DNA from: Candidatus Woesearchaeota archaeon
Lineage (GTDB): Archaea > Nanobdellota > Nanobdellia > Pacearchaeales > GW2011-AR1
Assembly: GCA_964408905.1 (NCBI GenBank)
Contig: CAYPBD010000001.1
Coordinates: 1 to 37,527 of the forward strand
Length of the DNA: 37,527 bases
Direction: 5' to 3'
Part shown: positions 1 through 12,628 of the stretch, in pieces
Layout: every line of letters starts with the position of its first letter
Position numbering within the stretch: the stretch's first letter is position 1
Position numbers and translations under genes: made by a program
Notes under the pieces: model-generated
The model's input: the letters and a program-made list of their open reading frames with translations, nothing else
Databases searched by the model: none
What the model was told of the DNA's origin: nothing

Positions 1-378
1 AAATGTAGTTAATCTGTAAGTCATTTTCTTAATCTTCACTTTACCTTTTCGTATAATTGACTGCGGAATCAGTTCTTTTATCCATGTTGCAAAATTTTCT
101 AAAGGAACTGTATGGGTGGCTACACTTTCTTTTAATTTTGAAGAAAGAACTTCTAATTCATTTAATTTTTGTTTATATCCAAGCAAACTTAGTAAAACAA
201 TATTCTTAGTTTTCTCTTTAGGACTTTCTCCAACGATGCGGGTTACAATAATTTTTCCATCTTGTTCTTCAAAGAGGGCATTTAAAGGAATTTCTTTTAT
301 TACCTCACCCCTGCTTTCAAGTATATCTAATCTCTTTTCTATCTTCTCAAATCTTTTTTTAATTTCCTCTTCATTCAT
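1..378 (-). CDS. hypothetical protein, truncated by the window edge (start present, 3' end outside window); paralog of the adjacent gene, probable winged-helix C-terminal part
   Basis: Not in the supplied track because no stop lies inside the window. A reverse-strand ATG at 378..376 opens a stop-free frame down to nt 1: MNEEEIKKRFEKIEKRLDILESRGEVIKEIPL...KVKIKKMTYRLTTF. The N-terminus parallels MEEEVKKEFEKVWKKIQELEGK of ORF 371..769. The start overlaps the last codons and stop (371..373) of that gene by 8 nt. Confidence 0.5.
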   Translation of the reverse strand, partial: MNEEEIKKRFEKIEKRLDILESRGEVIKEIPLNALFEEQDGKIIVTRIVGESPKEKTKNIVLLSLLGYKQKLNELEVLSSKLKESVATHTVPLENFATWIKELIPQSIIRKGKVKIKKMTYRLTTF

Positions 379-769
379 TTTTATTTTCTAAAAATTTAAT
401 TCCAGAATTTGTCAATTTCCAAAATTTTTGCTTTGTTTTTTTATCCGTAATCTCTACAGGCATAATGAACCCACTCTTATGAAGAGATTGGAATTTATCT
501 GCTATATTCTTGGGAACTTTTTCTCGTATTTCATGGAAACCTTCTTTTATCTCTTTAGTTGAGAATGCAAAAATATTTTTTAGTTTTTCCATTCCATGCA
601 TTATAAATAATGTCTTTTCAGGATCGCTTTTAAGATTGAATTCTAAGAACATTTCTCTTAACGACTTTTCACGAGTTTCTTGCTGGGAGACATTTTCAAT
701 TCTTTTCCCTTCTAACTCTTGAATTTTTTTCCAGACTTTTTCAAATTCTTTTTTTACTTCTTCTTCCAT
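371..769 (-). CDS. hypothetical protein, coiled-coil N-terminus plus winged-helix-like C-terminus
   Basis: Track ORF 371..805. I prefer the internal ATG at 769 (M13). It aligns with the N-terminus of the downstream paralog and lies 1 nt after the stop (771..773) of the upstream gene. The C-terminal stretch KNIADKFQSLHKSGFIMPVEITDKKTKQKFWKLTNSGIKFL has a helix-turn-helix plus wing pattern. Confidence 0.55.
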   Translation of the reverse strand: MEEEVKKEFEKVWKKIQELEGKRIENVSQQETREKSLREMFLEFNLKSDPEKTLFIMHGMEKLKNIFAFSTKEIKEGFHEIREKVPKNIADKFQSLHKSGFIMPVEITDKKTKQKFWKLTNSGIKFLENKNE

Positions 770-770
770 T

Positions 771-995
771 TTAATATTTTTTATATTCCCACCTTCCCCT
801 TTCATCTTTTCGCCTTTCTAATATTTCCTCTTGACATAAGAATGTTAAAAGTTGGGAAAGTAAACTGATTTTTTTACCCGAAATAGAGAATCCTTTTTGG
901 TCCAATTTTTCTACTACTTCTTCAATAGATTTGAATTCATCAAAGAAGCCCTCTTTATGTAACTTCTTGAGCATATCTTTATTTATCTTAACCAT
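771..995 (-). CDS. small winged-helix-like DNA-binding protein (hypothetical)
   Basis: 74-aa ORF. The segment GFSISGKKISLLSQLLTFLCQEEILERRKDERGRWEYKKY fits a wHTH recognition helix plus beta wing. It is the first of three back-to-back small genes on the minus strand. Confidence 0.5.
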   Translation of the reverse strand: MVKINKDMLKKLHKEGFFDEFKSIEEVVEKLDQKGFSISGKKISLLSQLLTFLCQEEILERRKDERGRWEYKKY

Positions 996-1105: not shown

Positions 1106-1169
1106 TAAAATATCTTTTGTGGTAAACTTAGTAAAGATATCATTTTATGTCAAAAAGAAATTATTTGAA
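1106..1169. repeat. 64-bp direct repeat, copy 1
   Basis: taaaatatcttttgtggtaaacttagtaaagatatcattttatgtcaaaaagaaattatttgaa. It matches 1371..1434 at a 265-nt offset with 3 mismatches (1115, 1160, 1167). It contains an 8-bp inverted repeat, atatcttt (1110-1117) / aaagatat (1133-1140). Confidence 0.9.
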
Positions 1170-1370: not shown

Positions 1371-1434
1371 TAAAATATCCTTTGTGGTAAACTTAGTAAA
1401 GATATCATTTTATGTCAAAAAGAACTTATTTAAA
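1371..1434. repeat. 64-bp direct repeat, copy 2
   Basis: taaaatatcctttgtggtaaacttagtaaagatatcattttatgtcaaaaagaacttatttaaa, 61/64 identical to 1106..1169. The two copies bracket 201 bp of very AT-rich DNA. Confidence 0.9.
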
Positions 1435-1490: not shown

Positions 1491-1510
1491 CCTTGCTCTT
1501 CGGGGCAAGG
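1491..1510 (-). terminator. GC-rich stem-loop just downstream of the MazF-like gene stop
   Basis: ccttgctc-ttcg-gggcaagg forms an 8-bp stem (one G:U pair) with a tetraloop (UUCG on the plus strand, CGAA on the minus strand). It is the only GC-rich patch in the intergenic region and lies 10 nt 3' of the stop at 1520. No oligo-T tract follows on the minus strand, so a terminator role is uncertain. Confidence 0.3.
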
Positions 1511-1519
1511 TCTGAAAAA

Positions 1520-1915
1520 TTAAAGGGACAAAATCCCTTTTATTCTCTTTTTTATTTCATTAAAATCATTTACACTGACACGCCCCATTTTACGAATTAA
1601 TCTAGAAGAATCAATTACTCTGGATTGACTTAATAATGCGGTGCTAATAATTCCTGTTTTTCCATCAAAAGAATAATAAAATTTTCCTGTTTTAGTTGCT
1701 TTAGTAAGGGGGATAATATGACAAAGTTGTTTACTAAAAATTTTTAATATTAATACTGGACGAGTAAATTCAACATGTTTCCCATCCTCTTCCCAACCAA
1801 TATTCTCACCAACTTTACACATCCAAATTTCTCTTTGATTATACCACATAGGATAGAAACCATTGTTGTTTGTTGCTATTTTTACAGGAACCCACTTTCT
1901 ATAATCTTTTATCAT
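1520..1915 (-). CDS. MazF/PemK-family toxin-like protein (putative endoribonuclease)
   Basis: REIWMCKVGENIGWEEDGK..FTRPVLILKIF...IIPLTK...ALLSQSRVIDSSRLIRKMGRVSVNDFNEIKKRI. This aligns by eye with the MazF/EndoA signature GD[IV][WY]..L....G.E..G.RP.[LV][IV][LI] ... P.T ... LL.Q.R.ID..RL..K.G.L. The ATG overlaps the upstream stop (ATGA at 1912-1915). Confidence 0.75.
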   Translation of the reverse strand: MIKDYRKWVPVKIATNNNGFYPMWYNQREIWMCKVGENIGWEEDGKHVEFTRPVLILKIFSKQLCHIIPLTKATKTGKFYYSFDGKTGIISTALLSQSRVIDSSRLIRKMGRVSVNDFNEIKKRIKGILSL

Positions 1916-3375
1916 TTCACAACCTCCCCCAACTTCCTCAAAATCTCAACCTCTGCCATTGTATCCATCTCACAATATTTTTCCAAAGCATCACGAACTT
2001 TCTTTTTTTCTTCATCAGAAACATTCTCTAAAAAAGTAATTCTCTCCCACTCATAACTTGCAAAATCTCCTTTCTTAATATCCAAATCCTGATAAGACAA
2101 ATCACTCAAAACAGGCAGAACATACTTAATTGAAGCAGAACCTTTTTGTTTAGAATCATAATACCAAAAATTCCTAAAAACATCCCACAAATCTTTTACT
2201 CGAGGTTCAATATTTTTCTCAAACCAATCCTGAAATTCTGGAATCGCCTTTGCACACTCTCTCATAACTCCTTTTTCAAAACTCTGATTATAAACTAAAA
2301 CACTTCCCTTATCCCCTAAATTATCTTTCAAAGCCTGCATAAATTTAGGCCTCGGGTCATCAACACCATCTGCCAAAAAACTAATATGTTTTAATTCTCC
2401 ACCTTGCTTTTTCTGAATATGCAAACTAAACTGAAAAGGAATTCTTTGATATGGTTTCATTCCATCAAACTTCGGAATCACAGGATTAATTGTTTCAAAA
2501 TCAAGATAATAAATAGGATATTTCAAATTCTTTAAAAAATTCTTAATTTTTTTCTTATTAACATGCTCACCACCTTTTTCAGACAATGCTCTTTGAATCA
2601 TTTGCTTTTCATTTAATTTAATATCATCTGGCACTTCTTCAATTTTAACAATTCCAGAATCATATAACTCAAAACATTTTTTCTTTCTCATTCTATAAAA
2701 TTCAAAAATATTTCCTTCAGGAACATCTTTCCAACATTCTTTCACTAACGAACAATCATAAGGGTCAGAACAATAAACTCCAATACAAGTCTTCGGCTCT
2801 TCTTTAGAATCAACAATCTTCAACATATTCTCAATTCTTTTTTCAATTCCTTCTGAAAACTCTTCAACTTTCTCAGTTATATCTGTTTGAACAAATAATT
2901 CACTAGGTTCAATCTCCCCATCTCTAACATACTCATTATTAATATGCATCAAAAAACACTTTCTAATTTTCAAACCCGCTTTCTCACAAACATATTTCTG
3001 AAAACTAACATCTTCAAGATTAATATCTTTTATTTTAGTAGCACTTTTAACTTCAATAATATCCCACTCATCACCTACAGGAAATAAAATATCAGCTCTC
3101 AAATACAAATCATCAACTTTAAACGACGCCTCAAACAAAGGAACTTTCTCAGATAATAATTGCTTTGTCTTCTCTATTGTCTCATTAAAATCTTCTGTTG
3201 GAATTCTTTTTCCATCTGGAAAAACTTTAGTAGCCAACTCTCCAATCATAGAACCAACATCAAACTTTTGCTGTGCAATCACATCTGGCTCAGGAATTCT
3301 ATCTTTCTGATTTTTAGTAATCCAAAGTAATCTAGGACACTGCAAACCCAATAAGTAATTTGATTTTGTTAGCAT
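1912..3375 (-). CDS. DUF2779-type protein: N-terminal PD-(D/E)xK (Cas4/RecB-like, Cys cluster) nuclease plus C-terminal DEDD/RNase H-like exonuclease domain
   Basis: N-terminal half: RADILFPVGDEWDIIEVKS (D95, E108-x-K110), with cysteines C13, C197, C202, C208 and C214 (CIGVYCSDPYDCSLVKEC) arranged like a Cas4/AddB Fe-S cluster. C-terminal half: PIYYLDFETINPVIP...IPFQFSLH...VLVYNQSFE...YCEMDT, which is exonuclease-like and matches my memory of the DUF2779 architecture. Confidence 0.7.
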   Translation of the reverse strand: MLTKSNYLLGLQCPRLLWITKNQKDRIPEPDVIAQQKFDVGSMIGELATKVFPDGKRIPTEDFNETIEKTKQLLSEKVPLFEASFKVDDLYLRADILFPVGDEWDIIEVKSATKIKDINLEDVSFQKYVCEKAGLKIRKCFLMHINNEYVRDGEIEPSELFVQTDITEKVEEFSEGIEKRIENMLKIVDSKEEPKTCIGVYCSDPYDCSLVKECWKDVPEGNIFEFYRMRKKKCFELYDSGIVKIEEVPDDIKLNEKQMIQRALSEKGGEHVNKKKIKNFLKNLKYPIYYLDFETINPVIPKFDGMKPYQRIPFQFSLHIQKKQGGELKHISFLADGVDDPRPKFMQALKDNLGDKGSVLVYNQSFEKGVMRECAKAIPEFQDWFEKNIEPRVKDLWDVFRNFWYYDSKQKGSASIKYVLPVLSDLSYQDLDIKKGDFASYEWERITFLENVSDEEKKKVRDALEKYCEMDTMAEVEILRKLGEVVK

Positions 3376-3376
3376 T

Positions 3377-3919
3377 TTATTTCTTGTATAAATTACCTTT
3401 TCTATTTATTTTATCATACATAAACATTGCTTTATCTATTTGTCTTGGAGTAAAATCATAATCATTACTCAATTGTCTTATTATCTTAAGATATAATAAC
3501 CAATCTTTAATATTAAAAACATCTTTTCTATATTTTACTAATCCTAAATTGTATAAACTATGCCACGCTCTTATATCAATAACACCATATTTCTCAGGAT
3601 AAGTAATTGTTAATATAGCAGATGCCATTGGTATTGAAACTCCATTAAGTGAAGTTAAAACTCGCATCTTTATCTCTTCACTATCTACTTCAAATGCAAA
3701 TTTAGTAATTTTTTCAATAACTTCGTCAGAATTATCCTCAGCTTTCCTAATAGCTCTAACAGATTTCCATCTTACTATTTCAAGAAAATTATTCTTAGTC
3801 AAATACTTCCTATTTTTAATATCATTTCCAATTTTCTCAAATAATCTTTCTTCTTTACTTGCATAACTAATTTTTTTATACTTTTTTATTAAATTTAAAA
3901 TTTCTTCTTGATTTATCAT
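3377..3919 (-). CDS. OGG-fold / helix-hairpin-helix-like protein (uncharacterised family)
   Basis: FLEIVRWKSVRAIRK ... LNGVSIPMASAILTITYPEKYGVIDIRAWHSL matches the pattern I recall for proteins annotated '8-oxoguanine DNA glycosylase OGG fold protein' (WK..R ... L.GVG...ASAIL....P..YPI.D.RA). Its stop is 1 nt from the next gene's ATG. Confidence 0.5.
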   Translation of the reverse strand: MINQEEILNLIKKYKKISYASKEERLFEKIGNDIKNRKYLTKNNFLEIVRWKSVRAIRKAEDNSDEVIEKITKFAFEVDSEEIKMRVLTSLNGVSIPMASAILTITYPEKYGVIDIRAWHSLYNLGLVKYRKDVFNIKDWLLYLKIIRQLSNDYDFTPRQIDKAMFMYDKINRKGNLYKK

Positions 3920-3953
3920 TAAATCATTCAGAAAAAGAGGGATTTAAGTTTAT

Positions 3954-5132
3954 CTATTTCTTCCTCTGCATAATAACATTCTTCTTGCTTCTCTTTTCCA
4001 AGACCAAAACTTTTTCTCGTCCTGTTTTCATATCCTTAACTTTAAACTTTTTTTTCTTAACTTCCTGAGCTCCAACAAAAATAACTTGCTGAATATTATA
4101 TGAATTAGCATATTCAAGTGCTTTAGAAGGTTTACCAAAAAAGATTGAAACAAGATTATCTCTTTTTCTCAATTCATTTGCAATTTTAATAGCCTGTTTA
4201 TCTTCATTTAAAGAAACAACTAAAACACTTTTTTTATTTGTATTGAGATTTAATTTTGAAATAATTGATAATCTTTCTAATCCCGTCCCAAATCCAAAAC
4301 ATTGAGTTCCATTAATATTATAACTTCCTCCTCCACAAATAGTTTCTTTAATATTAGATTTAACTTCAAAAATAGTTCCTGAGTAATAACTCAATCCTCT
4401 AGCTAAAAAAGGAGCGAATTTTACTGAAAATCCAAATAATTTACAATACTTCATTAAAATTATTATTTCTTTATAACTTTCAAATTTATTAAAATATTTT
4501 TCACCTTCATTAATTGATTTTAATAATTTATCTGCTCCTAATTTTTTAAGTTCTATTTGTGTTTTTTGAACTCCTTGTTTATCAAGTTTATCCAATTCTC
4601 TAATAATTTTATCCTTATTTTTATTAATTTTTAAATCATCTAAGATTTCATTTAGCAATTTTCTGTTATTAATTAAAATTGTGAATTTCACATTTAATCT
4701 ATTCAAAATGTCATTTACTAATGCAAGAATTTCAACTTCATCTTTTACTGAACTTCCAATAATATCTGCATCACATGCAATAAATTGCCTCCCTCTATTT
4801 CCTTGAATAGGTTCATCTCTAAATACTGGTCCAATTTGATATCTTTTATAAGGTAATTTCTTATTCTTAGCCAACCTCTTTAATTGAAACGTAAATTCAT
4901 AACGTAAAGCCAATTTTCTTTTTCCCTTATCTCTCAACTTGAAAATATCACTAACTGCCTCATCTTCTTTATTCTCTCCTTTAACAAACTCTTCATTTTC
5001 TATAATTGGAGTTTCAGCAGGTTCAAAACCATATTTTTCGAAAGTTTCAACTAAAATTTTTCTTATTTCTGCTCTTTTCTGAGCTTCTACTCCAATATAA
5101 TCTCTAAATCCTTTTACTAAATCTGTTTTCAT
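3954..5132 (-). CDS. hisS: histidine--tRNA ligase (class II HisRS)
   Basis: VKGFRDYIGVEAQKR...YGFEPAETPIIENEEF gives the HisRS N-terminal motifs. LRYEFTFQLKRL...YQIGPVFRDEPIQGNRGRQFIACDADIIG is motif 2, and GGGSYNI...GFGTGLERL is motif 3. The C-terminal part VLVVSLNEDKQAIKIANELR...VIFVGAQE looks like an anticodon-binding domain. Confidence 0.85.
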   Translation of the reverse strand: MKTDLVKGFRDYIGVEAQKRAEIRKILVETFEKYGFEPAETPIIENEEFVKGENKEDEAVSDIFKLRDKGKRKLALRYEFTFQLKRLAKNKKLPYKRYQIGPVFRDEPIQGNRGRQFIACDADIIGSSVKDEVEILALVNDILNRLNVKFTILINNRKLLNEILDDLKINKNKDKIIRELDKLDKQGVQKTQIELKKLGADKLLKSINEGEKYFNKFESYKEIIILMKYCKLFGFSVKFAPFLARGLSYYSGTIFEVKSNIKETICGGGSYNINGTQCFGFGTGLERLSIISKLNLNTNKKSVLVVSLNEDKQAIKIANELRKRDNLVSIFFGKPSKALEYANSYNIQQVIFVGAQEVKKKKFKVKDMKTGREKVLVLEKRSKKNVIMQRKK

Positions 5133-5149
5133 TTCATCCTCTATTTAAG

Positions 5150-5221
5150 GGTGGAAGGAGAGAATCGAACTCTCGTTTTGCGGACCACAACCACACGTTC
5201 TGCCATTAAACTACATCCACC
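5150..5221 (-). tRNA. tRNA-His (anticodon GUG) with genomically encoded G-1
   Basis: Reverse complement: G(-1) GTGGATG TA GTTT AATGGCA GAAC G TGTGG TTGTGGT CCGCA AAAC GAGAG TTCGATT CTCTC CTTCCAC C. It folds as a cloverleaf with one U:U in the acceptor stem. The anticodon loop uuGUGgu gives His. The extra 5' G (nt 5221) pairs with discriminator C73, the tRNA-His hallmark. CCA is not encoded. Confidence 0.9.
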
Positions 5222-5380
5222 ATATTTAATTAAAGATAAATCTAATTTATAACTTTTTCCAGAATCCAAAGCACAGCTAAATAAATCTCTTCTTTTAGTA
5301 ATGGGGATAACTCCACATTTTAGCTGTCATAAAAATACATAAGAAAAAGGGTTTTTAAATTTAACTTTCATATATCTTCA

Positions 5381-6574
5381 ATGGGAATAGTATTCAAAAA
5401 ACAAAAAGATAATCTTGCTTTAACAAACATGGGCAAACTTTCTATAATTTTCTTCATTGTATCAATATCTTCTGCAATCGTAAGCACAATCTGGGCAGTT
5501 TACATGGATAGTTTTCTAAAAAGTGTAGTCATTGTAGGATTCATCTCAGCTGCATTAACATTAACTTCTTTTTTGTCTTATTTCTTTTTTATTCCTTTAA
5601 TACAAAAAGCAGACAAATCAAAAATTTATTTATTTTCTTTGCTTCTTTTTGCAGTAACTTATGCATTATTTGCAATAAATACTAAATTTTATTTTTTTAT
5701 AATTCTCGCTTTTATTATAACAATATTAGGAGCTTTGAGAGTTACAAGTTTTGGGATTATTGTCAAAGATAAATCAGGTGAAAGACAACTTTCAAGAAAT
5801 GAGGGATTAATATATACTTTCTCAAATATTGCTTGGGTTATTGGTCCATTAATAGCAGGTTATATCTCTGACAGATTTGGATTAAATTTAATTTTTAGTC
5901 TTGCTGCAATCTTTCTTCTCATAGCATTTTTGCTTTTCAAAGTATCAAAAATAAAAGATGGCAATATTCAAAAAAAGATTAATAAAAATGTAATCAAAAA
6001 TTTCTTAGATTTTTTTAAAGATAAAAAAAGATTTCATGCTTATTTACTCGGAGGAGGAGTTAATTTATGGTGGTCCCTAATATATCTTTTTATTCCTCTT
6101 TATATTATTAGAAATGGTTTGGAAACAATTTGGGTTGGTTATTTTCTTTTTGCTATAGCAGTTCCATTAATGATTTTTGAATTTTATTTTTCTAAATTAA
6201 CAGCAAAAATTGGTTTTAAAAAAATATTCAAAATTGGTTTTTTAATTCCCGCAGTTCTTGTTATAATATGTTTTTTTATAACTAATGTTTACATAGTTTT
6301 GGGTTTATTAGCTCTTGCAAGTGTAGGTCTTGCAATGCTTGAACCAACAACAGAAGCTTATTTCTTTGATGTAATAAAAAAGAAAGAGGTATGTAGATTC
6401 TACGGCCCATATAATACAACAGTAGAAGTCAATGATTTCTTAGGAAAAATTATCTCAGCCACCCTTTTAATTTTCCTCCCATTCAAATTCATTTTCTTAC
6501 TCTTCGGAGCATTTATGTTATTTTTTGTATTCTTATCTTTTAAAATAAAAGATATAATTGAAAGTAAAAAATGA
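5381..6574 (+). CDS. MFS-type transporter
   Basis: About 12 hydrophobic helices, with an MFS-like loop motif after TM2/TM3 and again around GPLIAGYISDRFG. The stop overlaps the start of the next gene (ATGA at 6571-6574). Confidence 0.7.
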   Translation: MGIVFKKQKDNLALTNMGKLSIIFFIVSISSAIVSTIWAVYMDSFLKSVVIVGFISAALTLTSFLSYFFFIPLIQKADKSKIYLFSLLLFAVTYALFAINTKFYFFIILAFIITILGALRVTSFGIIVKDKSGERQLSRNEGLIYTFSNIAWVIGPLIAGYISDRFGLNLIFSLAAIFLLIAFLLFKVSKIKDGNIQKKINKNVIKNFLDFFKDKKRFHAYLLGGGVNLWWSLIYLFIPLYIIRNGLETIWVGYFLFAIAVPLMIFEFYFSKLTAKIGFKKIFKIGFLIPAVLVIICFFITNVYIVLGLLALASVGLAMLEPTTEAYFFDVIKKKEVCRFYGPYNTTVEVNDFLGKIISATLLIFLPFKFIFLLFGAFMLFFVFLSFKIKDIIESKK

Positions 6575-7746
6575 AAACTTCACAATACGAGCTTTTAGCA
6601 CCAGTAGGAAATTTTCCGATGTTAATCACAGCAATAAATGCAGGAGCAGACGCAGTTTATTTCGGATTAAAAGAATTTTCTATGAGAACAAAAAACTTTT
6701 CAATAAAAGACATTCCAAAAATAGAAAAAATATGCAATCAAAAAAAAGTTAAAAAATATCTTACATTAAATACAATAATTTATGACAATGAATTAAACAA
6801 AATTGAAAAAATAATAAAAAAAGTTAAAGGAAAAGTTAATGCAATAATTTGTTGGGATTTGGCAGTTATTCAATTATGTAAAAAATATAAAATTCCTTTT
6901 CATATATCTACTCAGGCTTCTGTATCAAATATTAAGTCAGCACAATTTTATAAAAAATTAGGCGCAAAAAGAATTGTTTTGGCAAGAGAATTAACTTTAA
7001 AACAAATTAAAGAAATTTCAAAAATAATTGATGTTGAATGTTTTACTCATGGTGCAATGTGTGTTGCTGTTTCAGGAAGATGTTTTACTTCACAATTTCT
7101 TTTCAACAAATCAGCAAATAGAGGAAAGTGTCTTCATCCATGCAGAAGATCTTATTTTGTAAAAGATTCAGAAGGAAATGAATTAAAAGTTCAGAATAAT
7201 AAAATATTTTCTGCAAAAGATTTATGCACACTTCCATTTATTGAAAAAATGAAAAAAGCAGGAATAAAAAGTTTTAAAATAGAAGGAAGAAATCGTGACC
7301 CAAGATATGTAGATACAGTTGTAAAAGTTTATAGAAAAGCCTTAGACAAAAAACTTAATAAAAAAGAAATTGAAGAAGGAATAAAAAAATTAAAAAAAGT
7401 TTATCATAAAGGATTCTCTTCTGGTTTTTATTTAGGTCTTCCAACATCAGATGATTTTGCAAAGACAGAACATAGTTCTGCAATAGAGAAAAAACATTTT
7501 ATTGGGAAAATTATTCATTATTATGACAAAATAGGAGTTGCATCAATAAAACTTGTTTCTGATTTAAAAGTTGGAAATAAAATTGTGATAATAGGACAAA
7601 CAACAGGAATTGTCAATTCAAAAATTAATTCAATTGAAAAAAACAAAAAGAATATTAAAAGTGCAAAAAAAGGGGAAGAGATAGCAATAAAAGTCCCAAA
7701 AAAAGTTAGAAAAAATGATGAGATTTATGTTTTGAAAAAGAAATAA
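6571..7746 (+). CDS. peptidase U32 family protein (collagenase-like / RNA hydroxylation-associated family)
   Basis: ELLAPVGNF..L..AINAGADAVYFG ... ECFTHGAMCVAVSGRCFTSQFLFNKSANRGKCLHPCRRSY matches the U32 signature E.F.HGA.C...SG.C..S.....SANRG.C...CR..Y. Confidence 0.85.
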   Translation: MKTSQYELLAPVGNFPMLITAINAGADAVYFGLKEFSMRTKNFSIKDIPKIEKICNQKKVKKYLTLNTIIYDNELNKIEKIIKKVKGKVNAIICWDLAVIQLCKKYKIPFHISTQASVSNIKSAQFYKKLGAKRIVLARELTLKQIKEISKIIDVECFTHGAMCVAVSGRCFTSQFLFNKSANRGKCLHPCRRSYFVKDSEGNELKVQNNKIFSAKDLCTLPFIEKMKKAGIKSFKIEGRNRDPRYVDTVVKVYRKALDKKLNKKEIEEGIKKLKKVYHKGFSSGFYLGLPTSDDFAKTEHSSAIEKKHFIGKIIHYYDKIGVASIKLVSDLKVGNKIVIIGQTTGIVNSKINSIEKNKKNIKSAKKGEEIAIKVPKKVRKNDEIYVLKKK

Positions 7747-7751
7747 TAAAG

Positions 7752-8195
7752 TTAAAATTCAAAATGAAGTGTTGAACATAATCTTTCACTTCCAGAAGCA
7801 TCTTCAAAATAAGGGGTAAATTCTACTTTGTTAGCATCTTCTATTTCTCCGTCTACACTTATAGTAACTGTATCCAAAGTTGCTATATTCCCTTCAGAGT
7901 CTATAACATCACTTGTCTCACCATCTAAATTAAAGAAAACTAATTTAACACCTCCAATTTCATCAGTACTCGAGCCTGTTCTTGACATAGTAATATTATA
8001 ATTTGTTCCATCAGTATTTACTACAGCTTTTGTTCTTATATTAATCTCTAAACATTTAGTATTATAATCAACTTGTTCAACTCCTCCTTCAACAATACCT
8101 CTCACAACAACCCACACAATTCCTAAAGATACAAAAACCAAAACAACAATTATTAATGAAGTTACAACAAGTGAAAGACCTTTTTTATTAATCAT
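7752..8195 (-). CDS. archaeal type IV pilin-like protein (class III signal peptide)
   Basis: Track ORF 7752..8255. I prefer the start at M21 (ATG 8195): MINKKG/LSLVVTSLIIVVLVFVSLGIVWVVV. This is a short basic N-terminus, Gly at -1, then a long hydrophobic helix. The remainder is beta-rich and Thr/Ser/Asp-rich. Confidence 0.6.
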   Translation of the reverse strand: MINKKGLSLVVTSLIIVVLVFVSLGIVWVVVRGIVEGGVEQVDYNTKCLEINIRTKAVVNTDGTNYNITMSRTGSSTDEIGGVKLVFFNLDGETSDVIDSEGNIATLDTVTISVDGEIEDANKVEFTPYFEDASGSERLCSTLHFEF

Positions 8196-8288
8196 ATCAA
8201 TTTTAATCAAATCTGATTTAAAAATATTTTCTTTAATATACAAATTGTAATTCAATAATACTTATAATTAAAAGAATTATTAATTCTT

Positions 8289-8519
8289 ATGCCTATAGAG
8301 AAAGATTATCAAAAAGAACTTGGAGCAAAATTAGGAATAAATTGTTCAAAATTAGAGCGTTTTATTCCCATAAAAGGGAATTGCGCAGAAATAGATTCTT
8401 TAATGAATGAAAATATAATTTATAAAAAAATTTGTAAGTATTGTGAAAAAGTGAGTGTTCATTGTGGATTTTATGTAATAAAGTGTAGTCATCCAAAATT
8501 ATTTGCTGAAATTTTTTAA
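8289..8519 (+). CDS. small Cys-rich hypothetical protein
   Basis: 76-aa ORF with 7 Cys, including CKYCEK and HCGFYVIKCSH (a possible zinc-binding pattern). It fills the only gap between two minus-strand genes. Support is weak. Confidence 0.35.
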   Translation: MPIEKDYQKELGAKLGINCSKLERFIPIKGNCAEIDSLMNENIIYKKICKYCEKVSVHCGFYVIKCSHPKLFAEIF

Positions 8520-8523
8520 TAAT

Positions 8524-9030
8524 TTAATAAATATTACTCTTACTCAAAACATAATTCTTAAATGCAACAGAATTACTTGAAAAATCCAATAAATAATAAT
8601 TTTCCCCTTCATGTTTTTTAGTAAATGCATCAACAGCAATCAAAAACTTTTCTTTATCTACATCAACAGTTTTATCTGGATTTGGATTTTGTTCAAAATA
8701 ATTTTGTGTTGCTTTGCTCATGTCATCCATACTTCCTTTCAAAATTTTTATCTTGTTTTTTCCATCTTCACCTAAGACATAATGAAGTTCATAATAAATT
8801 CCTTTTCCATCTTCCAAAATCGGATGAACCCGCAATCCCCATGGAATATCATCCTTAAAAAAAGCCAATCCCCGATAATAAATTTTTATTATCTCACCTG
8901 ATTCATTATTACTATTTATTATTTTTTTATTTATATTAATCATAAAAGAAAGAATGATAAAGAATATTATAAAAGTTATTAAAACAAAACCTTTTTTAGA
9001 ATTCCTAGGAACCATTAAATTAATTAACAA
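8524..9030 (-). CDS. membrane-anchored hypothetical protein, possible class III signal peptide
   Basis: N-terminus (M6) MVPRNSKKG/FVLITFIIFFIILSF resembles a prepilin-type signal. A soluble domain of about 130 aa follows. The start may be at 9015. Confidence 0.5.
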   Translation of the reverse strand: MLINLMVPRNSKKGFVLITFIIFFIILSFMININKKIINSNNESGEIIKIYYRGLAFFKDDIPWGLRVHPILEDGKGIYYELHYVLGEDGKNKIKILKGSMDDMSKATQNYFEQNPNPDKTVDVDKEKFLIAVDAFTKKHEGENYYLLDFSSNSVAFKNYVLSKSNIY

Positions 9031-9045
9031 AAAATAATTATAAAT

Positions 9046-10242
9046 TTATCTATTAAAACTATCTAACAATCTAAAGAATTCTTTTTTATCAAAAGTCTTA
9101 TCAACTTCATTTAGTCCAATATGTTCTGCCATTTTCCAAAATGCTTCTGGTTTATATCCTCTTTTTTTCAATGCCTGTATTGTAAGCAATTTTTCATCAT
9201 CCCAGCCAGAATATTTCCCTTCTTTAATTCCCTTAGTAATTTCACTGGCAGATAATTTCATTCCTTTAAGATGAATCTTTCCAAGAAAAGCACACCATGG
9301 ATATTTCTTTCCCAAAACCTTGAACATCATTTTCTGCCTCTCAGCATTATCCCGATGCTCTTTTGCCCGAATAATATGAGTCATTTTTTCTTCAATATCA
9401 TCAGTTGTAACAGCCAAATTCATCAATGGCCAAACACGATATTTTTTTCCCTGACGAGGATGTGAAGTTTCATTAATTCTTGCCAAAGGAAAATCTCTCA
9501 TCGCAGGATTCTTATGGCTCATGCTCGACTTAAATCTCAAAACAGCTTCGCCAACAGCAAATCCTTTTTTATCAAACATTTTCTTCCATCTTTCTATATT
9601 TTCTTTAACACTTAATTTTCTGCAAGGACAATTCTTTTTTTCTTTAACATATTCTCTAAACTTATCACCAGAACAGGTGCAAATATATGCAAATCCTTTC
9701 TTAATCAATTTCTCTGCATACTTATAATACAATTCCATTCTGTCTGACTGAATAACAATCTTTGCATTTCCATTAAACAGCCACTTTGAATCATCTTTCA
9801 GCAATTTGTAAGCAGGTTTGTAAATATTATTTGGATTTGTGTCCTCAATTCTTACAATAAATTTTCCTCCATATTTCTTTACATAATCAAAAGATAAACA
9901 TGCAGTAATAGCATGACCAATATGCATTGCACCAGAAGCAGAAGGAGCAAATCTCATCACCACACTAGATTTCTTTACATCAGGAAGTTCAGGCAAACCC
10001 TCACGAATTTTTCTTTCACTAACAACTTCCTGTAATTTTTTAAATTCTTTTTTCTGTTCTTCAACTGATAAATTATTAATTCCTAAAATTATTTCAGAAA
10101 TTTTTTTTGAATATTTTTTCGCCTCGCTCCTTTTCAAACCCTCATTAAACAAAGCAGATATAACTGCACCAAGATGCGCTTTTCCATTATAATGAATAGC
10201 ATTTTTCAAAACATATGCTTTGATTTTTTTATCTGAAATCAT
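9046..10242 (-). CDS. gltX: glutamate--tRNA ligase, archaeal/eukaryal type, catalytic core only (no C-terminal anticodon-binding domain)
   Basis: MRFAPSASGAMHIGHA carries the HIGH motif at residues 107-110. Other matches are RIEDTNP, FPLARI, WPLMNLAVTTDD and THIIRAKEH, with LKGMKLSAS as the KMSKS equivalent. GWDDEKLLTIQALKKRGYKPEAFWKMAEHIGL matches GWDDPRMPTISGLRRRGYT..IREFCKRIGV of GlnRS/GluRS. The ORF stops at residue 398. Confidence 0.8.
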   Translation of the reverse strand: MISDKKIKAYVLKNAIHYNGKAHLGAVISALFNEGLKRSEAKKYSKKISEIILGINNLSVEEQKKEFKKLQEVVSERKIREGLPELPDVKKSSVVMRFAPSASGAMHIGHAITACLSFDYVKKYGGKFIVRIEDTNPNNIYKPAYKLLKDDSKWLFNGNAKIVIQSDRMELYYKYAEKLIKKGFAYICTCSGDKFREYVKEKKNCPCRKLSVKENIERWKKMFDKKGFAVGEAVLRFKSSMSHKNPAMRDFPLARINETSHPRQGKKYRVWPLMNLAVTTDDIEEKMTHIIRAKEHRDNAERQKMMFKVLGKKYPWCAFLGKIHLKGMKLSASEITKGIKEGKYSGWDDEKLLTIQALKKRGYKPEAFWKMAEHIGLNEVDKTFDKKEFFRLLDSFNR

Positions 10243-10273
10243 ATAAATTAAAAAGAATAAGTGTTAATAAAAC

Positions 10274-10714
10274 TTATCTAAAATATTTTGCTAAAGAACC
10301 ATAAACACTTCTTGTATCATTTTTATCTGCAGGATATTGAGGTTCAAATGCTCCCCAGCAAGAAAATAATTTACTTGCTTTTCTTGTAAGAGCTTTCAAC
10401 ACCTGTTTTCTTTTTATTTTATATAATTCATCCATTCCTTCTCTAGGAAGAAATCTCTCAATATTTGCTAATTTTTTATACCCTCCTTTTTCTCCTCTCC
10501 TTTTCGCTGTCCTCCTTATAGCCTCAGAAGTTTCATCAACAATAATATGACTTAAAAACTGATAAACATTATGTTGGTTGACATTATTTTCTTGTTCTAA
10601 TCTTTCAATTAAATTATCAAAAAATTTTCCATTAGGAATCCATCCAACTTTGTTTTTCTTATGTCTTCTTTTATAAAAATTTTCAACAATATCTCTTGCA
10701 CTTTCCCTATCCAT
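10274..10714 (-). CDS. hypothetical protein
   Basis: 146-aa ORF in a coherent minus-strand gene series, with no recognisable motif. Confidence 0.5.
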   Translation of the reverse strand: MDRESARDIVENFYKRRHKKNKVGWIPNGKFFDNLIERLEQENNVNQHNVYQFLSHIIVDETSEAIRRTAKRRGEKGGYKKLANIERFLPREGMDELYKIKRKQVLKALTRKASKLFSCWGAFEPQYPADKNDTRSVYGSLAKYFR

Positions 10715-10772
10715 AAAAATTAGTCTAAAATCAAATTAATAAATATTATTGTGTTTAGAAGTATTTATTCAA

Positions 10773-11075
10773 TTACCTCGTCTTCTTTTCTAAAAGTTCT
10801 ACTCTTTGTTGCAAATGATAAATTTGGTTTGAAATTTCTTCCATCTTATTAGTTAAATCTCTTAATCTTTTTGCAAGTTTTTTCTTTCTATCCTCAGAAA
10901 TATTTGGATTATCTTGAGATGAATTGCTTGAAGCTAAATTTCCTAAAAAACTAAAAGCATTTTGTGATGAATCTTCCTGCGAAGCATTTTCCTGAGCAAT
11001 TTTTTTCTGCTTTTTTCTATAATGTTCAGTTAAATCAAGCACCCTGTCTTTTTTTCCAAATTTAAAGAATTTCAT
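10773..11075 (-). CDS. hypothetical coiled-coil protein
   Basis: Track ORF 10773..11090; the start is more likely M6 (MKFFKFGKKDRV). It has a low-complexity Ser/Asn/Gln middle and a C-terminal heptad-like helix KKLAKRLRDLTNKMEEISNQIYHLQQRVELLEKK. Confidence 0.45.
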   Translation of the reverse strand: MKFFKFGKKDRVLDLTEHYRKKQKKIAQENASQEDSSQNAFSFLGNLASSNSSQDNPNISEDRKKKLAKRLRDLTNKMEEISNQIYHLQQRVELLEKKTR

Positions 11076-11158
11076 AAAATAAATAAGCATATACTATTTT
11101 TAAATTTAGTCATATTAGAAGATTTTTTAAAACAATCATTCCTTAATTTCAATATAAA

Positions 11159-12628
11159 ATGGTGGCAACAATTCAACAAATTATTGGGAAAGTTAGTCCT
11201 TTGCTTTATGCAAAAAATGGAAAAGAATTATTAAAAAAATATGGTTCTATAGATAAAATTCCAGCCGATGAAGTTGAACCTCAAGATTTAGGAGAACATA
11301 ATCTTGTCTATGATTCCTCGTCAGAAACTTTAGAGCCAATTTATTTTTTTATTCTTGATTTAATGAATGAATTTGGATTTGCTCCAGAAAAACTTGTTGA
11401 TTCTTTTATTTCTTCTCCAGGTTCAGGACATTTTTCAGAACTTGGGCAACGAGCATCAGTAATGCAACAACAAGGAGCTAAAATCTTAGCTGATGTAAAC
11501 ACTGTTCTAAGAAGTGTTCTAAATATCATTTATGATTTAAAAGAATTCAGAATGCGTTTACAATATTATAATGATTTAAAATCAAAAGATAAAAAAAATG
11601 CAGCAATACTTGCTCTTAAACAAATCTGGATGGATAAAGTAGATGTAATAAAAGGCAATTCAAGCATTAAAGCAATGGCTTTGGGTCAGATGGGTTTTCA
11701 GACATTAATTGATGCATTCTTGTCTGTAAATAATGTAGCGGATGTTAATAAAATTGATTTAAATGAAAGAGTTAAACGAATCTTGATTCCAAGAATTCAG
11801 GAATTTAATATTTGGTTAGAGCAATCTGGAAAAGAATTACAAAAAAGATATGAAATTGAAAAAACATATTTAAGAAGTCAGGTAAATAGTTTAAAACTTT
11901 ATTCACGATGGGCAAAGCCATATCTAAAAGCAGCCCAGCAACTTGAAACATCACAAATTGGAGGAGCTCGAAATCCCGCTTTAGTGAAGACATTTAATAC
12001 AATTCTCCTTGAATTAACTTTATTTGGAAAAAAAGCAGTTAAGGTAAAAGAATCTGCTCTTGAAGGAAAATTACCTTCAGATTTTACAAAAGAAAGTTTT
12101 CTAAAAACATTAAAAAGAAAATATTATTCCTGTGTATTAGTTGATTTTATGTTTAGAGGAATTCCACAAAAAACATCTGCTTACCAGCACCATTATGTTT
12201 TTGGAGGAAAGGCAGAAGTAACATTTAGGGCATATGCATTAAATGAAGATGAAATCAAAAAGATTAATGATGAACTTAAAGAATCAGATGTTGAAGATGT
12301 TCTTAAATTAATCGAGGGAACAACAACAGAAAGTTTAAAACAATTGCAAAAAGATATAAACTTTTTTTTAGAAGAAAAAACAGAAGAGAAAAAAGAAAAA
12401 CCTAAAGAAAATTATGCTAAAAAAATAAAAGAATTTTTCCCTAATATTAAAAAAGATTTAAAAGAAACATTTTTTGGTAAAACTAAATCAAAAAAAGAAG
12501 AGATAAAACTTGATAATTTTATTGAAAAAGAACATCTAAGACCTTTAGCAGAAGAAACCGCAACAGAAACTATCTTAAAATTATTTAATGTTTATAAAAA
12601 AGCTCATGGTATGCCAAGTTATGTTTAA
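11159..12628 (+). CDS. hypothetical protein (helical core, beta-rich region, Lys/Glu-rich tail); no family recognised
   Basis: 489-aa ORF with no Walker or other catalytic motifs seen. It is the first gene of a tightly spaced plus-strand block (gaps of 14, 30 and 1 nt). Confidence 0.65.
   Translation: MVATIQQIIGKVSPLLYAKNGKELLKKYGSIDKIPADEVEPQDLGEHNLVYDSSSETLEPIYFFILDLMNEFGFAPEKLVDSFISSPGSGHFSELGQRASVMQQQGAKILADVNTVLRSVLNIIYDLKEFRMRLQYYNDLKSKDKKNAAILALKQIWMDKVDVIKGNSSIKAMALGQMGFQTLIDAFLSVNNVADVNKIDLNERVKRILIPRIQEFNIWLEQSGKELQKRYEIEKTYLRSQVNSLKLYSRWAKPYLKAAQQLETSQIGGARNPALVKTFNTILLELTLFGKKAVKVKESALEGKLPSDFTKESFLKTLKRKYYSCVLVDFMFRGIPQKTSAYQHHYVFGGKAEVTFRAYALNEDEIKKINDELKESDVEDVLKLIEGTTTESLKQLQKDINFFLEEKTEEKKEKPKENYAKKIKEFFPNIKKDLKETFFGKTKSKKEEIKLDNFIEKEHLRPLAEETATETILKLFNVYKKAHGMPSYV

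Follow-up and report, generated by a model that had tools for sequence, protein, structure and literature searches.

The 37,527-nt stretch of Candidatus Woesearchaeota DNA analysed here (the window) carries three closely packed minus-strand open reading frames (ORFs), g1, g2 and g3, which encode proteins of 180, 487 and 131 aa. The first is an OGG-like protein with the HhH-GPD fold, the second a DUF2779 dual nuclease and the third a MazF/PemK-fold protein. Comparison with related loci showed that g1 and DUF2779 recur as a pair, and that the three genes together do not stand as a named system. With moderate confidence we read the locus as two units of different origin in one operon, a module made of g1 and g2 and an independent g3. 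The structural part of this reading, a real g1–g2 pair and a MazF protein that is independent of it, is in our view highly probable; a defence-type mechanism for the pair is offered more tentatively.

DUF2779 is among the most widespread uncharacterised nucleases of reduced genomes (DPANN archaea, candidate phyla radiation (CPR) bacteria and Mycoplasma), and a recurrent OGG-like partner provides a testable lead to its substrate, namely DNA with non-canonical bases. More than 400 metagenomic proteins belong to the MazF clade of g3. Their catalytic residues are intact and no antitoxin is recognisable beside their genes, which raises the question of how such proteins are tolerated or controlled.

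Pairing of g1 with Cas4-like nucleases

Homologs of g1 were compared in 10 independent lineages, a small sample whose statistics are not corrected for phylogeny. DUF2779 lies downstream of g1 in the same directon in five of them, and g1 is accompanied by DUF2779 or another Cas4-like nuclease in six. The window lineage has the order g1, DUF2779, MazF, and in a second lineage (L011-13) g1 and DUF2779 are 4 nt apart. A third (L016) has a Csa3-like gene, g1, a 160-aa gene, DUF2779 and an MmeI-like restriction-modification (RM) gene, and a fifth (L141/142) has a HinfI RM system ahead of a g1 homolog (43% identical) that is followed by four genes and then DUF2779. The remaining DUF2779 locus (L022) lies in a region, 1643-11354, that resembles an integrated mobile element, with a tyrosine integrase, small ORFs and a protein-primed family-B polymerase (PolB), continuing into the g1 homolog, a UDG, DUF2779 and an MmeI-like RM enzyme, all co-directional. 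In the sixth lineage (L014), g1 is followed by a different stand-alone Cas4-like PDDEXK_1 nuclease (8e-15), beside a methyltransferase. We considered whether this locus holds a split DUF2779 and rejected it, as the 217-aa product is another Cas4-like nuclease in which only the N-terminal Cys motif aligns (E 0.006) and the 227-aa product is unrelated. Elsewhere g1 precedes a PLD+SNF2 helicase and an MmeI-like methyltransferase (L019), or directly follows BREX PglZ/BrxL with no Cas4-like nuclease to form a pair (L140).

The flanking genes are different in every g1–nuclease locus. The DUF2779 proteins linked to g1 are scattered in the DUF2779 tree and are 48-58% identical to one another, and their g1 partners are 64-74% identical to g1 of the window. 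By a rough binomial calculation that ignores kinship, finding DUF2779 in five of 10 lineages has a probability of ~2e-8 if the chance per locus is 1%. Because the flanks differ, the partners are scattered and this probability is so low, we consider the link between g1 and DUF2779 real. The dependence is one-way. DUF2779 genes are plentiful and mostly stand by themselves, but g1 is rare, with ~18 close homologs against more than 120 for DUF2779 at similar identity, and usually sits beside a nuclease. The sequence-only reading of the window had looked to synteny elsewhere as support for all three genes, and it is this pair, and not the trio, for which such synteny was found.

MmeI-like type IIL/IIG RM genes also recur beside DUF2779 and MazF-clade genes on DPANN contigs (L004, L016, L019, L022, L023, L034, L061, L064-66 and L124), with none in the window. 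This recurrence suggests a shared variable or defence-island compartment.

Characterization of g1

On its own, g1 has no direct match in Pfam, NCBIfam or PADLOC, and the PADLOC defence-system models likewise gave no match for g3. The AlphaFold2 (AF2) model of g1 has a mean confidence (pLDDT) of 93, and the top 50 PDB matches of this model in Foldseek are all HhH-GPD glycosylases, the best being archaeal Ogg2 (3knt; probability 1.0, TM-score ~0.5). A profile built from 72 members of the g1 family finds the Ogg2 structure 3fhf at 8e-8, so the OGG-fold/HhH assignment first made from short sequence motifs was borne out by structure and profile alike. PF21790 (OGG-like protein) is matched by 22 of the 72 relatives, mostly below the gathering score (best E 6e-5), and PRK01229 by 30, and g1 itself has no match to PF21790 at E<0.1. 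Residue D115, which follows the HhH motif and aligns with the catalytic Asp of Ogg2, is invariant both among 32 and among 72 family members. The position of the Ogg2 Schiff-base Lys (K129 in MjaOgg) is taken by Pro97, a residue that does not vary among close family members, and since this Lys is replaced g1 is predicted to have no bifunctional lyase chemistry. These data place g1 in the HhH-GPD superfamily, near Ogg2 and PF21790, but not among the bifunctional Ogg enzymes.

The g1 family comprises 3,787 clusters (50% identity) at E <= 1e-3. Most of its top 150 representatives are 170-200 aa long and stand alone, and no fused nuclease domain was found in the longer relatives among them. A search of PHROG matched g1 to phrog_24538 (function unknown) at 5e-17, and a search of IMG/VR gave no confirmed match. 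Distant relatives (~30% identity) are encoded by two temperate pleolipoviruses, Haloarcula hispanica pleomorphic virus 4 (L145, 4001-4441) and HHPV3, and by haloarchaeal megaplasmids (L143).

Characterization of g2

The g2 protein is a full-length, plain member of DUF2779 (PF11074; 141.5 bits, E 2.2e-41), a family in which published analyses recognise a DEDD(h/y) exonuclease joined to a Cas4-like nuclease (PMC3985635, PMC13621843). Its N-terminal half has a weak match to the PADLOC Cas4 model (4.5e-4). Across 57 aligned homologs from archaea and bacteria, D95, E108, K110, D292, E294, E367 and D471 are present in all 57, Q126 is invariant or nearly so, Y467 is conserved, C13 is invariant and C202, C208 and C214 are ~90% conserved. 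These residues make up a PD-(D/E)xK set (D95/E108/K110/Q126) with a four-Cys cluster (Cys13/202/208/214), and a DEDDy set (D292/E294/E367/Y467/D471) that includes the YYLDFET motif beginning at residue 289. The architecture, key residues and Cys cluster that had been read from the sequence hold across these homologs, and both active sites of g2 are intact.

More than 4,360 DUF2779 homologs were found, the closest of them labelled Pacearchaeota, Woesearchaeota or Nanoarchaeota, and the family is near-universal across DPANN, CPR and Mycoplasma-type reduced genomes. One member, MMSYN1_0389, is quasi-essential in the Mycoplasma-type JCVI-syn3 according to published analysis. DUF2779 has no match in PHROG, the window holds no CRISPR array, and no cas genes (cas1/cas2 included) were present among the neighbouring genes scanned. 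One Woesearchaeota genome (L023) carries two full-length DUF2779 genes, 1343-2827 and 5992-7470, ~3 kb apart.

Characterization of g3 and its MazF clade

Residues 27-128 of g3 match PemK_toxin (PF02452; cut-off 23.1 bits) at 43.3 bits (E 4.6e-11). The AF2 model has a pLDDT of 78, and its top 50 PDB matches in Foldseek are all MazF toxins (E ~1e-7, TM-score 0.63-0.77), in agreement with the fold first proposed for it. In the alignment with B. subtilis MazF, R52 and T71 of g3 fall on the catalytic R25 and T48; within the clade R52 is invariant and nearly all members have S or T at position 71. The clade also has its own N-terminal extension of ~25 aa (M-x-KDY-x2-W-x2-VK), for which the model gives a helix of low confidence. 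Sequence, fold and catalytic residues all put g3 in the MazF family, but it does not belong to a type II toxin-antitoxin (TA) module.

The lack of a recognisable antitoxin, already noted by the sequence-only reading, was upheld by ORF and Pfam searches covering the 37.5-kb window. All frames were scanned for ORFs, down to a length of 20 aa in the region downstream of g3 and of 40 aa across the gene region, and none of these ORFs is antitoxin-like; no small same-strand ORF lies between or overlaps g1, g2 and g3. Pfam searches with the 74- and 144-aa proteins encoded downstream and with 10 window ORFs of 61-146 aa returned no antitoxin domain. A type III (ToxIN-like) antitoxin was also considered and rejected: the sequence 5′ of g3 is g2 coding sequence, so there are no tandem RNA repeats there, and the 524-nt gap downstream of g3 gave no Rfam match for an antitoxin or other non-coding RNA, has a folding z-score of −0.41 and holds repeats that are not tandem.

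We then extended the comparison to the MazF clade, using 80 metagenomic loci of 410 matches and eight loci from exact-protein look-ups; 70 distinct proteins were compared. The upstream gene is divergent in 18 of these, co-directional but more than 60 nt away in 21, a large co-directional gene at most 60 nt away in 15 and a small co-directional ORF at most 60 nt away in 10; a contig edge accounts for the other six. None of the 10 small ORFs has a MazE, AbrB or RHH domain; one encodes a GIY-YIG protein, one a RelE-like toxin, and the rest have no credible domain match. All-versus-all clustering of the ±2 neighbours at ~85 loci gave no shared partner family beyond single lineages. The antitoxin is likewise missing where clade genes adjoin relaxase, terminase or RM genes and a wide range of unrelated ones. 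The copy on a Helicobacter suis plasmid overlaps a relaxase gene by 4 nt, just as g3 overlaps g2; a Campylobacter prophage copy lies between the large terminase and portal genes, and a Nitratiruptor plasmid copy has no annotated antitoxin beside it. A search of IMG/VR gave one weak match to the MazF protein. Several metagenomic contigs (L056, L057, L106 and L109) carry the gene as two or three paralogs within 1-2 kb.

Throughout this MazF clade, on plasmids and in prophages too, a recognisable antitoxin is missing whatever the context, so its absence at this locus is no ground for proposing g1 or g2 as a surrogate antitoxin. The earlier proposal that the nuclease or the OGG-fold protein might restrain the toxin loses its footing here. 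Possible reasons why such an RNase is tolerated include a narrow specificity, a trans-encoded inhibitor or a requirement for activation.

Nor did the trio recur. A g1 homolog neighbours none of the MazF-clade genes in the 70 distinct loci, nor any outside the window, and DUF2779 stands beside MazF in only one other lineage (L002-7, L063 and L068), where the two genes are divergent and 95 nt apart and g1 is absent. A conserved system of three genes is not supported, and the suggestion that the trio forms a defence or abortive-infection module is not upheld. The best reading of g3 is that it is a separate unit added at the 3′ end of the operon.

Operon structure and surroundings

The coordinates of the three genes and of the features around them are listed in Table 1. 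The layout described earlier was confirmed to the nucleotide, with a 1-nt spacer between g1 and g2 (nt 3376) and an ATGA overlap of the g2 stop and g3 start at 1912-1915.

Table 1. Genes, predicted signals and neighbouring features of the g1–g2–g3 locus.
Feature	Position	Strand	Basis
g1, OGG-like HhH-GPD-fold protein, 180 aa, predicted non-canonical-base reader or monofunctional glycosylase	3377..3919	-	ORF, family alignments, AF2 model
g2, DUF2779, Cas4-like PD-(D/E)xK + DEDDy-type 3′-5′ exonuclease, 487 aa	1912..3375	-	Pfam, conservation
g3, MazF/PemK-fold protein, 131 aa, solo-MazF clade	1520..1915	-	Pfam, clade alignment, AF2 model, Foldseek
Putative archaeal promoter, BRE-like GATAAA then TATA-like CTTAAA, directly past hisS stop	3943..3954	-	motif reading
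GGAGG Shine-Dalgarno-like motif, 7 nt 5′ of g3 ATG, within g2 coding sequence	1923..1927	-	sequence
Probable transcript end, T5 run (1515-1519) right after g3 stop, then hairpin (1491-1510)	1491..1519	-	sequence
hisS	3954..5132	-	
tRNA-His(GTG)	5149..5220	-	
64-nt direct repeat, two copies	1106..1169 and 1371..1434		
Three small overlapping genes (74 aa, 144 aa, partial 126 aa)	371..995 and 1..378	-	

A single transcript had been deduced from this packing. The transcript itself remains probable, but the packing is weak evidence for a functional link, because nine of the 24 same-strand neighbour pairs in the window are spaced at most 5 nt apart and an unrelated pair, an MFS transporter and a U32 peptidase, has a 4-nt overlap as well. 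Promoter-like signals do speak for a shared operon. A TATA-like YTTWAW box occurs 25-32 nt 5′ of the ATG in 13 of the 34 window genes (~10% by chance), with its position peaking at −30 to −27. A box at −25 to −32 is the pattern of leaderless archaeal mRNAs, and most window genes appear leaderless. The g1 gene has such a box starting at −29, and g2 and g3 have none, so the promoter ahead of g1 would yield a leaderless g1 mRNA. A Shine-Dalgarno (SD)-like motif is found in six of the 34 genes, g3 among them, which fits translation of g3 as an internal gene of a polycistronic mRNA. With the box at g1 only, the SD motif at g3 and the T5 run after g3, these signals suggest that g1, g2 and g3 are probably carried on a single transcript with its own promoter, independent of hisS. 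The hairpin beyond the T5 run (CCTTGC-N8-GCAAGG) is GC-rich, conspicuous in DNA of 28% GC and occurs once in the window; it may be a terminator or other transcript-end structure.

The window has the low GC content (~28%) of an AT-rich archaeon, and its genes include those for a thermosome and ribosomal protein L35Ae. Upstream of hisS, and only 16 nt away on the same strand, lies tRNA-His, and given this spacing the tRNA and its own synthetase gene may be co-transcribed. The 524-nt gene-free stretch downstream of g3 contains both window copies of a 64-nt direct repeat, 265 nt apart. The copies share 95% identity and a core of 41 identical nt, and the repeat is absent from 142 other loci. Past this gap are three small overlapping genes, none of them antitoxin-like, of which the 144-aa product has a weak DUF2513/winged-helix match. 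No matches to hisS or the other flanking genes of the window were found near homologs in the 145 fetched loci.

Proposed function and alternative explanations

We propose that g1 would flip out and recognise a non-canonical base in DNA, and that it could possibly excise this base since D115 is retained. The DUF2779 dual nuclease, combining a Cas4-like endo/5′ activity with a DEDDy 3′-5′ activity, would then cut and resect that DNA. Together the two proteins may work as a split version of the END nucleases, which restrict phages with hypermodified bases (bioRxiv 10.1101/2025.03.31.646159). As DUF2779 functions without g1 in most genomes, g1 would be an accessory specificity factor and not an obligate partner. 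The g3 gene is best pictured as independently mobile, from a clade whose members turn up at the 3′ ends of unrelated genes, and in this genome it would have become the SD-led last gene of the operon.

Several observations weigh against this proposal. Two of the g1 lineages (L009 and L020) have no evident partner. Relatives encoded by haloarchaeal plasmids and by a pleolipovirus (28-30% identity) also lack a nuclease partner, and because these distant relatives stand alone a link to nucleases is not a uniform trait of the g1 family. Among 33 DUF2779 loci from other species (species-representative genomes), none has g1 or MazF adjacent, and as DUF2779 is usually alone, very common and quasi-essential in Mycoplasma, its core role may be housekeeping DNA-end processing rather than defence. 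Since its catalytic Asp is kept, and the END sensor domain has neither of the two catalytic residues, g1 may be a working monofunctional glycosylase and not an inactivated sensor. The surroundings in the window are of a housekeeping kind (hisS, tRNA-His, MFS transporter, U32 peptidase and thermosome), and domain scans of the window genes found no RM gene. Finally, the adjacency of MazF and DUF2779 in two lineages is slightly above chance (p ~0.005-0.06), and a loose link between them may exist.

Much of this would suit a different explanation, which is the main rival to ours although we think it unlikely: g1 and g2 as a housekeeping base-excision-type repair pair of a reduced genome, where g1 is an active monofunctional glycosylase for a damaged base, DUF2779 processes the resulting abasic site or break, and MazF is unrelated. 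The kept HhH-GPD Asp, the closeness of g1 to the Ogg2 repair enzymes, the UDG between g1 and DUF2779 in the mobile element-like region, the near-universal and quasi-essential status of DUF2779 and the housekeeping context of the window are all consistent with repair. The rarity and patchiness of g1 relative to DUF2779 would be unusual for a core repair enzyme, however, and its neighbours elsewhere are RM, BREX and PLD-helicase genes and a mobile element. It is also better conserved than its nuclease partners, suggesting horizontal movement.

Accidental adjacency, with three unrelated genes packed by genome compaction and no pairwise link, seems quite improbable to us. The close spacing of so many window genes (unrelated overlap included), the uniqueness of the trio and the usual solitude of DUF2779 would all be expected from it. 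Against this, the presence of a DUF2779 or Cas4-like nuclease with g1 in most of its lineages, amid unrelated flanks and with partners as divergent as they are, is hard to explain by chance or by inherited synteny.

Least probable of all is a trio acting as one integrated defence or abortive-infection system, with sensing by g1 and g2 controlling MazF or with the nuclease or OGG-like protein as a non-canonical antitoxin: the operon arrangement, the ATGA overlap, the SD motif of g3 inside g2, the intact catalytic residues of g3, the lack of an antitoxin in the window and the second, somewhat above-chance MazF–DUF2779 lineage speak for it, but the trio is seen in the window alone, g1 is near no other MazF-clade gene, the second lineage is divergently transcribed and without g1, the 33 DUF2779 loci of other species lack MazF, and an antitoxin absent across the clade calls for a clade-wide and not a locus-specific explanation. 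Its boldest form, in which g1 and DUF2779 are a split archaeal END-type module, the antitoxin-less MazF is a plug-in RNase silenced or triggered by such modules, and the trio is a working DNA-sensing and abortive-infection unit, is just as much a long shot. Of the readings weighed here, we favour a g1–g2 module, with g1 as its accessory factor, joined by an independent, mobile g3.

Comparison with known systems

Solo Cas4 proteins share with g2 the RecB/Cas4 motifs and four-Cys cluster, as well as a setting with no CRISPR array nearby and no cas1/cas2 among the genes scanned. They differ in that g2 is fused to a DEDDy exonuclease and is classed as DUF2779, not Cas_Cas4, with only weak Cas4 matches. 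The DUF2779/PF11074 family itself, represented by MMSYN1_0389 of JCVI-syn3.0 and the UU173 family, has the same two-domain architecture as g2 with the D-E-K and DEDD(y) residues conserved; the Mycoplasma form has partly lost the four-Cys cluster, which the archaeal form keeps.

In comparison with type II mazEF/pemIK loci, g3 has the MazF fold, a PemK_toxin score above the threshold and the catalytic Arg and Thr. Unlike those loci, it has no MazE, AbrB or RHH antitoxin beside it, nor do its 70 clade relatives; it also has the ~25-aa N-terminal extension and is a solo gene in many contexts, plasmids and prophages among them.

Archaeal Ogg2 (MjaOgg, 3knt/3fhf; SsoOgg, 3fhg) has its fold in common with g1 (probability 1.0, TM-score ~0.5), and the HhH motif and D115 align. 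The two differ at K129 of MjaOgg, which is Pro97 in g1, in their low identity (~13%), in length (180 aa for g1 against 207 aa) and in gene context.

The END nucleases are the closest comparison for g1 and g2 together. They have an inactivated EndoIII/Ogg-like domain whose best HHpred matches are PF21790 and archaeal Ogg2 (bioRxiv 10.1101/2025.03.31.646159 / PMC12191111). This sensor domain is reported to lack catalytic residues and is fused to a PLD nuclease, a NucS-like PD-DExK nuclease or a McrB-like GTPase; the paper describes fusions only (bioRxiv 10.1101/2025.03.31.646159). Like END-PaCF1 and END-Mag, the pair described here has an OGG/EndoIII-like HhH domain related to PF21790/Ogg2 (3FHG/3FHF) with no lyase Lys, this domain is combined with a nuclease (PD-DExK type included), and related loci lie in RM- and BREX-type islands. 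In contrast to END nucleases, sensor and nuclease are separate genes and not a fusion, the nuclease is DUF2779 (Cas4-like and DEDDy) and not PLD or NucS-like, g1 keeps the catalytic Asp, and the host is a DPANN archaeon. As the pair is not a fusion and keeps the Asp, we class g1 and g2 as a variant and not as an END member, and the papers we found hold no description of a g1–DUF2779 partnership. If the pair does act as a split END-type module, this would be the first function for DUF2779, and should it restrict viral DNA that carries modifications, the principle of the END nucleases would hold for archaea too, and for forms split over two genes.

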